64,000 nucleotides of DNA from an uncultured Solirubrobacteraceae bacterium (lineage in GTDB: Bacteria; Actinomycetota; Thermoleophilia; Solirubrobacterales; Solirubrobacteraceae), in contig CAVWBJ010000001.1 of assembly GCA_963753235.1 (NCBI GenBank), forward strand, positions 499,917 to 563,916, read 5' to 3'. The translations under genes and the position numbers were made by a program. The notes beneath the pieces were generated by a model. That model did no database searches, had not been told where the DNA came from, and worked only from the letters and a program-made list of their open reading frames with translations. Below are positions 1,631 to 57,178 of this stretch, piece by piece; positions within the stretch are counted from its first letter, which is position 1; each line of letters begins with the position of its first letter.

Positions 1631-3208
1631 ATGGCCACCCCCGTCCAGGAGCGTCGCGGACCGACGGCGGCGGCCGTCGCTCGCCCGTCCCCGCGCACCT
1701 GGCCGGTGATCGCCGGGCCGGCGGCGCTGGCGACCCTCCTCACCTTTGCCGGGATCGGCAGCCGCAGCCTCGGTTTTGACGAGGGTGCGACGGTGGCGAT
1801 CGCCTCGCAGCACGGCTCGGCGCTGTGGGCCGGCATCGCGCACGACGGCGGCAACATGTCCGGCTACTACCTGCTGCTCCACGGGCTGATCGGCGCGTTC
1901 GGCAACGGCCTGGTGGTGCTCCGCCTCGTCTCCGGGCTGGCCGTGGTGGCCACGGTGGCGCTGGTGGCGCTGATCGCCCGCCGACTGTTCGCTCCAGCGG
2001 TGGCGCTTGCCGGTGGCACTCTGGCCGCGGTCAGCCTGCCGCTGATCTACTGGGGTCAGACGGCACGCGCCTACGGGCCGATGGTGGCCTTTGTGTGCGC
2101 CGGCTTCCTCGCCTTGATCGAGATCGCCGACGCCCCGGGGCAGGAGGGGCGCCGCGGCCCCTGGCTGGCCTACGTGACGGCGATGACGCTGGCCATGTAC
2201 TGCAGCTTTGTGGCCGTGCTGGTCCTACCCGCCCAGCTGCTGGTCCTGGTGCATCGCCGGCGCGCCTGGCGGACGTTCGGATCCGCGCTGGCGGTGGTGG
2301 CCCTGCTGTGCGTGCCCCTGGTGGTGCTGGCGGTGCGCCGCGGGTCCGGCCAGCTGTTCTGGGTGCCGCCCCCCAATCGGATGGTCGAGACCCAGGTCCT
2401 GCAGTCGCTGACCTCAGCCGGCCTGACGCCGAGCTTTCGTCACACGGTGACCACCAACCTGCTCCTGTGGGGAACGGTGGCGGCCCTGCTGGCCCTGGTG
2501 GCCGATGCCGTCCGGCGCTGGCGGGGCGGCGAGGATGTGTGGGGCCGGGTCCTGGTGCTGGCCTGGTCGATCCTGCCGGCGGCGATCACGTTTGTCTATT
2601 CGCTCTTGTCCCAGCCGATCTTTGAGCCGCGCAACGTGCTCGTGTCCACGCCGGCCATCTCGCTGGCGCTGGCCACCGCCATCTCCGGGACGCGCCGGGT
2701 CCGGGTGGCCGCCGCCGTCGGCGTGGCCCTGGTCCTGGCGCTGCGGGCGCTTCAGGTGGCGCCGGCCTACGGCGTGTCCCCGGAGCCGTGGTCGGCGGTC
2801 ACCGCCCGGGTGCTGGCCCAGGCCCGGCCGGGTGACTGCATCGCCTTCTATCCGCTGGACAGCCGGATGGCGTTTCAGTACTACGTGGCCCGGACCCCGG
2901 GCGGTCCCCAACGGGCTCCGCGGTCGATCCTGCCGGAGATCTCCTGGCGGCAGGTGAAGTCATACGTCGAGGACTACCGGACGCTGTCCGCCGCCCAGGT
3001 TGCCCGGCGGGTGGTGGCCTGCCGCCGGCTGTGGCTGGTCTCCAGCCACGAGGGCCAGCCGGACGGGCCCGCCCTGGCCCGGGCTCACCGGAACGAATAC
3101 TTCCGCTTTGACGCCACGCTTCAGGCGATGTTCGGACTCAGCCCGGTGCAGAGCGACGGCTACGCCAGCACCATCCACGTCCAGCGGCTGACGATCCGCC
3201 GCAGCTGA
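1631..3208 (+). CDS. GT-C family membrane glycosyltransferase (ArnT/PMT, GT39/GT83-like) with a C-terminal soluble domain
   Basis: 525-aa ORF starting at ATG 1631, 10 nt after the previous stop. The N-terminal two thirds are multi-TM and the last ~130 aa are hydrophilic. The early region GIGSRSLGFDEGATV...GNMSGYYLLLH is typical of the PMT_2/ArnT-like fold. Confidence 0.6.
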   Translation: MATPVQERRGPTAAAVARPSPRTWPVIAGPAALATLLTFAGIGSRSLGFDEGATVAIASQHGSALWAGIAHDGGNMSGYYLLLHGLIGAFGNGLVVLRLVSGLAVVATVALVALIARRLFAPAVALAGGTLAAVSLPLIYWGQTARAYGPMVAFVCAGFLALIEIADAPGQEGRRGPWLAYVTAMTLAMYCSFVAVLVLPAQLLVLVHRRRAWRTFGSALAVVALLCVPLVVLAVRRGSGQLFWVPPPNRMVETQVLQSLTSAGLTPSFRHTVTTNLLLWGTVAALLALVADAVRRWRGGEDVWGRVLVLAWSILPAAITFVYSLLSQPIFEPRNVLVSTPAISLALATAISGTRRVRVAAAVGVALVLALRALQVAPAYGVSPEPWSAVTARVLAQARPGDCIAFYPLDSRMAFQYYVARTPGGPQRAPRSILPEISWRQVKSYVEDYRTLSAAQVARRVVACRRLWLVSSHEGQPDGPALARAHRNEYFRFDATLQAMFGLSPVQSDGYASTIHVQRLTIRRS

Positions 3209-54908: not shown

Positions 54909-55532
54909 CTAATGCATCCGCGGGTCGACGAACACATCGTCGATCTCTGACCTGCCGGTCAGCGCGGTGAAGCGCAGCGCCACCTGCGTGGTCCCCTTCG
55001 ACAGAGCCCCGGTGACCACGGATGCGGTGAGCATCGGCAGCGACGGCGCCCAGTTCCCGCTCAGCGCGACCGCGCCCACGGGCACGGCCACCTGGCCCAG
55101 CAGCGGGAGCCGGTAGACGACCGACACCAGCATCGTCGACAGCAGACCCTGATTCCGCCCAAAGAAGCGGAAGGTGGGGTAGGCGGCGTCAACACAGGTG
55201 AACGGCGACTGGGCGGATCCCCCGGCCGGGATCTGGACCGACGCCGCCCCGACCGAGCCGGCGGCGCCGAACGGCTCGCTGCCGCCGACGATCCGGGCTC
55301 CGCCGGCCAATGTCCAGCCCGCGGATCCGGTCTCAAAGGACCCACCGGGGACCAGCTTGTACTGGGAGGTGTCTCCCCACGGCGCAAACGGTTGTGTCAG
55401 CGCCGCGTTATCGCACGCGTCGGTCGAGATGATCGCCGCGTGCGCGCTCGTCCCGGACAGGACGAAGACCCCCAGGGCTGCCGCGGCGGCGGCGAGGATC
55501 CGGGTGTGACGGCTGAAAAGGCCCAGCAACAT
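54909..55532 (-). CDS. Secreted protein of unknown function (possible jelly-roll/CBM-like fold) under riboswitch control
   Basis: 207 aa with signal peptide MLLGLFSRHTRILAAAAAALGVFVLSGTSAHA. GGSFETGSAGWTLAGG resembles the first strand of galactose-binding/CBM4_9-type sandwiches. ATG 55532 is preceded by GGAAGG. Confidence 0.65.
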   Translation of the reverse strand: MLLGLFSRHTRILAAAAAALGVFVLSGTSAHAAIISTDACDNAALTQPFAPWGDTSQYKLVPGGSFETGSAGWTLAGGARIVGGSEPFGAAGSVGAASVQIPAGGSAQSPFTCVDAAYPTFRFFGRNQGLLSTMLVSVVYRLPLLGQVAVPVGAVALSGNWAPSLPMLTASVVTGALSKGTTQVALRFTALTGRSEIDDVFVDPRMH

Positions 55533-55554
55533 ACGTACGCACCTTCCGTGGTGT

Positions 55555-55650
55555 GTAATGGCAGCCGAGCTATCTCGCGGGTTTCAGCCCTGAGACCTCT
55601 AGCTTTGCGTCCCTGGCTCACGCCAGGTTTGCCCTTTTCAGGTTGATCGA
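55555..55650 (-). promoter_or_regulatory. c-di-GMP-I (GEMM-I) riboswitch aptamer in the 5' leader of 54909..55532
   Basis: The minus-strand RNA is CAACCUGAAAAGGGCAAACCUGGCGUGAGCCAGGGACGCAAAGCUAGAGGUCUCAGGGCUGAAACCCGCGAGAUAGCUCGGCUGCCAUUAC. It contains GGGCAAACC, a 6-bp hairpin with GNRA loop GUGA, GGGACGCAAAGC, a P3-like stem, and AGCUCGGCUGCC, colinear with the Vc2-type aptamer core as I recall it. Confidence 0.8.
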
Positions 55651-55789: not shown

Positions 55790-57178
55790 ATGACGATGGA
55801 GCCAAGCTTCGAGGAGCAGGAGATCCTCGCCGATAAGCGTCGCCGCGTGCGCCGCCGCCTCACCGTGCGCGAGGTGGTGGCGGAGCTGCTGGTGGGACCT
55901 GGCTTCTTCGTCTGCATCGCTCTGCTGTGGTGGATCCAGCCGCCCCAGCACGTCGATCTCACCGCCGCCATCTACTGCGTGGCGGTCATGGTCCTGGCCA
56001 CGCGCGTCCTGTTTGAGACCCCGCTCGGATTCACGGTTGCCACCCAGCTGGCGTTCGTGCCGATGCTGTTCGCGTTGCCGCTGGCGGTGGTGCCGCTGGC
56101 GTTCGCCGGCGCCCTGGGGCTGTCGGCACTCAAGGACGTGGTGGCGGGGCACCAGCGGCCGATCACGCTGCTGCGCGTTCCCGGCAACTCTTGGTCGGCG
56201 ATCTTCCCCTGTCTGGTGTTTGCGATCGCCGGCCTGGCCCCCTCCCATGCCGGCGCGGCGCTGGTGGTGGCGGCGCTGGCCGCTCAGTTCGTCGGCGACT
56301 TCGTGGTATCCGCGCTGTACTTTGGGATCGCGCAGCGGGCCGGGTTGCGGGCCCAGCTGCGTGACAGCTGGGTGTACCTGATCGACGCCGGCCTCTCCGG
56401 GGTGGCCCTGGCCGTCGCCGAGGAGATGCACGGGGCCCCCTACGCCGTCCTGGCCATGGTGCCGCTGCTGGGGCTGCTGGCCATGTTCGCCCGGGAGCGC
56501 CGAGGCCGGCTGGGCAACCTGCTGGAGCTCAACGAGACCTACCGGGGCACCGCGCTCCTGCTCGGTGACGTCATCTCCCATGACGACGGCTACACCGGCG
56601 AGCACTCCCAGGACGTGGTCGGCCTGGCCCTGGCGGTGGGCGAGCAGCTGGGGCTGGATGCCGAGCGCCGGCGTGACCTGGAGTTCGGCGCGCTCCTGCA
56701 CGATGTGGGCAAGATCGCCATCCCGAAGGCGATCGTCAACAAGCCGGGCAAGCTTGACCCGGACGAGTGGGAGCTGATGAAGACCCACAGCACCGAGGGC
56801 GAGCGCATGCTCAACCAGGTCGGCGGCTTCATGCGCGAGGTGGGCCAGATCGTCCGTTCCCACCATGAGCGCTGGGACGGCGGCGGCTATCCCGACGGCC
56901 TGGCCGGCGTCGCCATCACCCTGGAGGCGCGCATCATCACCTGCTGTGACAGCTGGAACGCGATGCGCACCGACCGGCCGTACCGGCCCGCCATGTCATA
57001 TCAGGCGGCCATGGCCGAGCTGCTCGGCAACGCCGGGACCCAGTTCGACCCTGACGTGGTGCGGGCGGTGGTGGCGGTGGTCTCGGCGACCGAGCGCCGG
57101 ACCGCCGAGCCGTCACCGGCCGAGGTCGACAGCCAGCCGGTGGCTGGCTACGCCACCGCCGTTCCGGTCGGGAGCTAG
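55790..57178 (+). CDS. Membrane-anchored HD-GYP domain protein (putative c-di-GMP phosphodiesterase), second copy
   Basis: The N-terminus is multi-TM. It then has HSQDVVGLA, LLHDVGKIAIP, HHERWDGGGYPDGL and CDSWNAMRTDRPYR. Confidence 0.85.
   Translation: MTMEPSFEEQEILADKRRRVRRRLTVREVVAELLVGPGFFVCIALLWWIQPPQHVDLTAAIYCVAVMVLATRVLFETPLGFTVATQLAFVPMLFALPLAVVPLAFAGALGLSALKDVVAGHQRPITLLRVPGNSWSAIFPCLVFAIAGLAPSHAGAALVVAALAAQFVGDFVVSALYFGIAQRAGLRAQLRDSWVYLIDAGLSGVALAVAEEMHGAPYAVLAMVPLLGLLAMFARERRGRLGNLLELNETYRGTALLLGDVISHDDGYTGEHSQDVVGLALAVGEQLGLDAERRRDLEFGALLHDVGKIAIPKAIVNKPGKLDPDEWELMKTHSTEGERMLNQVGGFMREVGQIVRSHHERWDGGGYPDGLAGVAITLEARIITCCDSWNAMRTDRPYRPAMSYQAAMAELLGNAGTQFDPDVVRAVVAVVSATERRTAEPSPAEVDSQPVAGYATAVPVGS

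Follow-up and report, generated by a model that had tools for sequence, protein, structure and literature searches.

The minus strand of the 64-kb stretch of Solirubrobacteraceae DNA analysed here (the window) carries an element that is, by every sequence-level criterion tested, a canonical c-di-GMP-I (GEMM-I) riboswitch. It lies in the leader of a gene encoding a secreted protein with a predicted beta-sandwich fold, and the preferred reading, which leans on the folding models and is held with slightly better than even confidence, is that the riboswitch most likely controls translation initiation and most likely acts as an ON switch. No new RNA class is involved: the c-di-GMP-I class has been known since 2007-2008, the element is a further copy of it, and standard Rfam-based annotation would detect it. 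A literature search for c-di-GMP riboswitches in Solirubrobacterales found nothing relevant. The coordinates of the features are collected in Table 1.

Table 1. Features of the riboswitch locus, in positions of the window.
Feature	Position	Strand	Basis or remark
Regulated gene, 207-aa secreted protein with signal peptide and two conserved Cys	54909..55532	-	MAM/carbohydrate-binding-module-type beta-sandwich predicted
CCUUUUCAG in codons 4-7 (GGC CUU UUC AGC), complementary to the aptamer 5' strand	55513..55521	-	Perfect 9-nt complement
SD hairpin: core CACC/GGUG, 6-nt loop ACGGAA, 1x1 mismatch, three outer pairs	55536..55557	-	Covariation between clades
c-di-GMP-I aptamer, full length (P1, P2 and P3 around a three-way junction)	55556..55642	-	RF03167, 69.8 bits; upstream of the orthologue in 78/80 species
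C, equivalent of Vc2 C92, predicted ligand contact	55561	-	Invariant in 79/79 leaders (column C87)
P3 stem with variable distal hairpin (GGG-CUGAAA-CCC in the window)	55563..55604	-	RNAalifold and covariance model, same register
A, equivalent of Vc2 A47, predicted ligand contact	55606	-	RF03167 consensus has G here
P2 hairpin CCUGGC-GUGA-GCCAGG; GNRA tetraloop at 55618..55621	55612..55627	-	Covariation
G, equivalent of Vc2 G20, predicted ligand contact	55633	-	Directly 5' of the invariant G-C/C-G clamp
Aptamer 5' strand CUGAAAAGG (P1 5' half, A-rich joining strand, G20 equivalent), proposed alternative-helix arm	55633..55641	-	Reverse-complement search
ACCGATCA box, candidate promoter element ~20 nt upstream of P1	55659..55666	-	Weak evidence
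Membrane HD-GYP protein, predicted c-di-GMP phosphodiesterase	55790..57178	+	Pfam HD_5, 5.7e-37; motifs HDVGK and HHERWDGGGYP

Identification and clan assignment

Comparison of the whole window with Rfam 15 (cmscan, gathering cut-offs) returned a single match in 64 kb, at the aptamer (E 1.9e-14), for which the top model was RF03167 (c-di-GMP-I-GGC) of clan CL00126, scoring against a cut-off of 59 bits and aligned over model positions 1-80 of 80. Under clan competition one further, lower-scoring CL00126 family, presumably RF01051 to judge by the orthologous leaders, also lay above its own cut-off on the window, and all three members of the clan match it at E <= 10. The earlier note had read a c-di-GMP-I riboswitch from the minus strand and proposed a search with RF01051, with a score above the gathering threshold as support; this match bears out the identification and exceeds the threshold within the c-di-GMP-I clan, and RF01051 belongs to that same clan, but the best-scoring model is RF03167. 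The minus strand of 55555..55645 corresponds letter for letter to the RNA quoted in that note, which had also correctly placed GGGCAAACC, the CCUGGC/GCCAGG hairpin with its GUGA loop, GGGACGCAAAGC, GGAAGG (55547..55542) and the ATG at 55532. Its estimate that the aptamer ends about 25 nt before GGAAGG and the ATG fits the start codon, which lies 23 nt away, but not GGAAGG, which is separated from the aptamer by 8 nt.

The order of the conserved blocks, namely GGCAAACC, a GNRA-capped P2, GGGACGCAAAGC, P3 and GCUGCC, is that of the c-di-GMP-I (GEMM-I, RF01051) aptamer as represented by Vc2 of Vibrio cholerae. When folded alone, the 87-nt stretch forms the G-C clamp, P2 and P3, with a z-score of -2.3 relative to dinucleotide shuffles.

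Aptamer helices and covariation

Pairs were counted for each aptamer helix in a MAFFT alignment of 79 leaders, which are phylogenetically related, so that the counts below are not independent. P2 showed changes on both sides in five of its six pairs, with 99.8% of cells paired across the 79 leaders; its loop, a GNRA tetraloop of the kind that docks into P3 in this class, is G[CU]GA in all except two of them (L039 and L072, with GCGAAG), and the loop G, G and A are invariant. P3 is mostly invariant, with a variable pair at columns 50/80 (AU:67, GC:5, GU:5) and an additional pair at 57/71, recognised by RNAalifold, in which both sides have changed in 33 sequences. The compensatory changes in orthologous leaders on which the earlier note had made its P2 and P3 helices depend are thus present, in the five pairs of P2 and in these two pairs of P3. 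For P1, 78% of cells are paired and two pairs have changed on both sides. Over the whole aptamer the paired fraction is 92.1%; it drops to 30-42% if the 3' partners are displaced by 1-3 columns, and none of 500 shuffles reached the observed covariation score.

RNAalifold run without a supplied structure recovered the clamp, P2 and P3, the latter in the same register, in which the partner of AGCU is GGCU at the 3' end and that of GAG is CUC. The register AGCUA/UAGCU that had been proposed earlier for P3 finds no support in the covariance model, RNAalifold or covariation. C55609 and, within P3, G55570, the expected partners of the interhelical pair between P2 and P3 (C44-G83 in Vc2), are invariant in 79/79 leaders, and hence no covariation signal is possible for them.

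Ligand-contact nucleotides, sub-family assignment and integrity of the aptamer

The residues of Vc2 that contact c-di-GMP are G20, A47 and C92 (PMC4744006). As judged from the aligned letters, G55633, A55606 and C55561 are the canonical G20/A47/C92 binding site: the G20 equivalent is G in 77 of the 78 orthologous leaders (A in L021), the A47 equivalent is A in 79/79 leaders, that is, in the window and all 78 orthologous ones (column A42 of the alignment), and the C92 equivalent varies nowhere. In the conserved core, the sole mismatch to RF03167 falls on the second of these positions, where the consensus GGGACGCGAAgC (GCGAAgC) faces GGGACGCAAAGC (GCAAAGC) in the window.

Among 20 orthologous leaders scanned, all of them with the A47 letter, RF03167 was the top model in 16 (59.7-69.3 bits) and RF01051 in four (41.1-58.5 bits, cut-off 35); the 16 RF03167-topped leaders also gave a second clan match above its own cut-off, presumably RF01051. 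Since the top model switches among leaders with identical binding-site letters, the sub-model label reflects overall similarity and not the binding site. The 'GGC' of the family name is said to denote the letters at positions 20, 47 and 92, a usage reportedly going back to Weinberg et al. in PNAS in 2017; taken in this sense, the window RNA is a 'GAC' and falls into the parent class.

That the element is a true c-di-GMP-I-GGC or some other specificity variant, with a ligand other than c-di-GMP, therefore appears extremely improbable on these letters, even with RF03167 as the top-scoring model (69.8 bits against 59) and with a sequence very close to that family, including a GCGA-type loop and AGAGGUCUC...GAGAUAGCUCGGCUGCC. 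The G that the model places at the A47 position is missing from the window and from every orthologous leader, for which reason the GGC assignment was rejected; G20 and C92 are canonical, and the orthologous leaders alternate between the two models. The 3',3'-cGAMP riboswitch (GEMM-Ib) shares the fold and the clan, but has A at position 20, and this type of variant is ruled out by G55633. A different doubt concerns P1, which in the window and in four relatives (L002, L003, L004 and L010) is formed by only two Watson-Crick pairs (G-C and U-A; CCUG against CAUU, CACU or CGUU), with C.U mismatches at two positions. Together with the complete loss of the aptamer from one orthologous locus (L027), such a P1 might indicate that the riboswitch of the source genome is decaying or weakened. 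This is quite improbable: all five sub-clade species retain intact the nucleotides for ligand and tertiary contacts, P2, P3, the SD hairpin and the complement in the coding sequence, and the Rfam score of the window is the highest measured, above the maximum of 69.3 among the 20 orthologous loci. The preferred assignment remains a canonical c-di-GMP-I aptamer.

The single leader with A at the G20-equivalent position (L021:1871-1985; AAAAGAGCAAACC) carries the change that defines the cGAMP-type GEMM-Ib. The same leader has CUC in place of CUU in the coding-region complement and an A-to-G change in the SD hairpin; it could represent altered specificity, decay or an assembly error.

Occurrence in Solirubrobacterales and in metagenomes

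A scan of one genome per GTDB species yielded 80 loci with an orthologue of the 207-aa protein (60-86% identity), and in 78 of these Solirubrobacterales species the aptamer lies ~100 nt upstream of the same gene. The locus without aptamer mentioned above (L027) has kept the SD hairpin, as CACACC-ACGGAA-GGUGAG, before the orthologue (~330 nt upstream of position 3001), and another one (L031) has neither aptamer nor SD hairpin, with an HD-GYP homologue downstream instead.

A metagenome scan with the core GGACGCAAAGCNAGNGGTCTC matched at least 120 contigs. Among the matches listed, the downstream genes and platforms are many and different, and include tandem aptamers and low-GC leaders with intrinsic terminators. 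The number of contigs and the variety of downstream genes indicate that this type of aptamer sequence is common. Some contigs carry two aptamers: those of L165 and L170 are in tandem, ~95-125 nt apart, and those of L124 and L138 are separated by ~525-585 nt. In the low-GC leaders L088 and L098, the same core is followed by an intrinsic terminator (GGGGUGG and a U run).

The regulated gene and its HD-GYP neighbour

A Pfam search of the 207-aa protein found no domain. The protein has 1392 homologues, and all of those with a named organism come from metagenome-assembled genomes of Solirubrobacteraceae. Its AlphaFold2 model is a beta-sandwich (mean pLDDT 66.8; 70-90 in the core), for which Foldseek retrieved MAM domains and carbohydrate-binding modules (CBM22/4/6/16/61) from the PDB with E-values of 1e-6 to 1e-4 and TM ~0.5. 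On these structural matches, a secreted protein with a glycan- or matrix-binding role is plausible.

The gene for the HD-GYP protein, which is no part of the RNA, is the divergent adjacent neighbour in 75 of the 80 orthologous loci. A c-di-GMP-sensing leader and the gene for a predicted c-di-GMP-degrading enzyme thus share one intergenic region.

Shine-Dalgarno hairpin, terminator and promoter

The SD hairpin begins 0-2 nt after P1; its loop carries most of GGAAGG, and three to four outer pairs lie beyond the mismatch. The occlusion of the ribosome-binding site by CACC-ACGGAA-GGUG, as suggested in the earlier note, is supported by covariation, in that another clade has the same architecture in other letters (AGCC-AUGGAG-GGCU, with outer pairs U-A/A-U), and RNAalifold recovers part of the hairpin (pair 129/138, CG:50, GC:22). 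Most leaders of the two clades form their two outermost hairpin pairs with G and U from CAGU, the 3' strand of P1, and therefore P1 and the full hairpin compete; this overlap is absent from the window and its four nearest relatives because P1 there consists of just two Watson-Crick pairs. In a third clade the local hairpin is weak, and the aptamer 3' end, AGCCGCC, is complementary to GGAGGCU, as read from the sequences and the fold. ACCU of the 5' strand could also form four pairs with AGGU at the SD, but this match was set aside, being confined to the sub-clade of the window and too short to weigh. The core of the SD hairpin is present in both modelled states, and the mean unpaired probability of the SD is uninformative: with four of its six bases in the hairpin loop, the value saturates at 0.67.

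No terminator-like site was found between the aptamer and the ATG. This and the covarying SD hairpin speak for the translational control that had been proposed earlier, and we infer that the platform is translational.

A scan for sigma-70 consensus promoters found none. Upstream of the aptamer, a (G/C)CCGAT(G/A/C) box lies ~31-35 nt before the GCAAAC core, and CGAT occurs at -50 to -25 from this core in 120 of 195 leaders, including 64 of the 116 metagenome leaders among the matches listed; the downstream genes of the CGAT-bearing metagenome leaders are often different. The box resembles the -10 element GCCGATAA of sigma-28/FliA/WhiG promoters. A TAAA -35 at fitting spacing from the box was not evident in the position matrix, and a sigma-28/WhiG-like promoter is only a lead.

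A complement of the aptamer 5' strand in the coding region

The aptamer 5' strand CUGAAAAGG finds a perfect complement, CCUUUUCAG, within codons 4-7 of the regulated gene. The 9-mer and its reverse complement occur at these two places only in 64 kb (0.08 expected by chance), and their duplex is worth -10.6 kcal/mol. A fold in which this helix is enforced reaches -63.8 kcal/mol, compared with -65.7 for the minimum free energy structure and -52.2 with the aptamer enforced; the gap of ~12-14 kcal/mol is comparable in magnitude to the binding energy of picomolar-to-nanomolar c-di-GMP aptamers. In the same helix-enforced fold, the P3 3' strand CUCGGCUGC (55561..55569, minus strand) is also paired, its partners being the start-codon G and codons 2-4 (GUUGCUGGG, 55524..55530), a helix that has a mismatch in relatives with CAG at codon 3.

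Nearly all leaders of the clade of the window have the complement, at a constant spacing of 21-23 nt downstream of the SD, and it recurs in additional metagenomic leaders that encode different protein sequence on either side. Where the SD hairpin is the same but the N-terminus is unrelated, the complement is missing. Of 35 distinct related leaders, 32 use CUU as its Leu codon, a codon that makes up 2.8% of those for Leu in six window genes, and the Arg and His codons that follow vary synonymously. The three exceptions to CUU (L021, L023 and L046) have altered 5' strands as well, and in L056, L064 and L078 five A of the 5' strand are accompanied by five U on the coding side; a further leader (L090), with five A and only four U, counts against pairing. 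Both arms of the helix are nearly invariant, and classical covariation is consequently almost absent. A preference for AU-rich codons close to the start also has other causes.

Tentatively, and with rather less than even confidence, the complement may be given a wider meaning: nine base pairs joining codons 4-7 to the 5' strand, with its G20 ligand contact, would lock the ligand-free state and be kept by selection at synonymous sites, with the coding sequence serving as the anti-aptamer of a c-di-GMP ON switch, and the RNA, the glycan-binding-like protein and the HD-GYP protein would form a module conserved in the sampled Solirubrobacterales.

Direction of switching

The free energy needed to open the region from the SD to +13 was compared between the unconstrained and the aptamer-enforced ensembles of the 79 leaders. 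Opening was costlier in the unconstrained ensemble in 61 leaders, and in 14 it was cheaper there by a margin above 0.5 kcal/mol; the difference averaged 3.6 kcal/mol. An enforced aptamer takes pairing partners out of play, which biases the comparison, and a control with dinucleotide-shuffled platforms was therefore run; in it the mean difference over all leaders was 1.4 kcal/mol. For the clade of the window the real and shuffled values were 4.5 and 0.8 +/- 2.4 kcal/mol, respectively, and the window itself, with 5.2, lay above all eight of its shuffles; in the clade with the AGCC hairpin the difference was about zero or reversed.

An ON switch is favoured by these opening energies, by the competition between P1 and the SD hairpin, and by the complement of the 5' strand in codons 4-7. 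In the mechanism proposed, the P1 5' half and the G20 equivalent contained in CUGAAAAGG would pair with codons 4-7 as long as c-di-GMP is lacking, the freed P1 3' strand would in most relatives lengthen the SD hairpin, and the landing site of the ribosome would be closed. With c-di-GMP, P1 and the binding pocket would hold the 5' strand, the early part of the coding region would become free, and the SD hairpin would be weakened and translation raised. The secreted protein would then be made at high c-di-GMP, beside the conserved HD-GYP phosphodiesterase gene.

The same riboswitch could also work in the opposite direction, with c-di-GMP closing P1, which would stack on and stabilise the adjacent SD hairpin and so reduce translation. 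This OFF reading is doubtful, yet it can draw on the position of the SD hairpin immediately after P1 and on its persistence in aptamer-enforced folds, on the 14 leaders, mostly of the AGCC-hairpin clade, in which the ribosome-binding site is harder to open in the aptamer-enforced state, and on Vc2 of V. cholerae, which a passage of a preprint describes as an off-switch (bioRxiv 10.1101/617340). Against it, P1 removes two nucleotides from the base of the hairpin in most leaders of clades A and B, and owing to the complement in codons 4-7 the more closed of the two states is the ligand-free one, in folds computed without coaxial stacking. Control exerted mainly on transcript elongation or stability, through Rho-dependent termination or RNase access, is improbable. 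High-GC Actinobacteria often do without intrinsic terminators, and the lack of one here would leave Rho or RNA decay, while pairing of the 5' end with the coding region could protect that end; the conserved and covarying elements nevertheless coincide precisely with the SD, the AUG and codons 2-7, which is the signature of initiation control, and a layer of elongation or stability control would probably be secondary to translation. An ON switch of translation initiation thus remains the preferred reading.

Comparison with known systems and implications

Besides the order of its blocks, the element has in common with Vc2 and the c-di-GMP-I class the ligand-contact letters and the setting, a 5' leader that precedes a gene for a secreted or surface protein and has a gene for a c-di-GMP enzyme close by; the C and G expected to form the interhelical pair are conserved. 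It differs from the class in the very short P1, in a probably translational platform that seemingly reaches into codons 4-7, and in its host, a high-GC actinobacterium of the Thermoleophilia and neither a proteobacterium nor a firmicute. Translational ON riboswitches in which an aptamer strand is shared with the sequestering helix are known, for example the add adenine riboswitch of Vibrio vulnificus. As in that type, a P1 strand of the window is predicted to pair either in the aptamer or with the translation initiation region, and there is no terminator; unlike in that type, the 5' strand has its predicted competing partner in the coding sequence itself, and the SD sits in a local hairpin of its own.

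For annotation, the finding that RF03167 outscores the parent model on RNAs with A at position 47, as in 16 of the 20 orthologous leaders, means that automatic annotation will over-call GGC variants in this group of Solirubrobacteraceae. The leader also offers a compact, testable case of a translational platform in which the first codons would act as competitor of the aptamer. Neither the mislabelling by RF03167 nor such a first-codon platform alters what is known of the riboswitch class. For the Solirubrobacteraceae, a poorly studied and uncultured soil lineage, the analysis adds a cleanly supported c-di-GMP-I riboswitch and names a likely output under c-di-GMP control, a secreted MAM/CBM-like beta-sandwich protein accompanied by the HD-GYP gene in 75 of 80 species.
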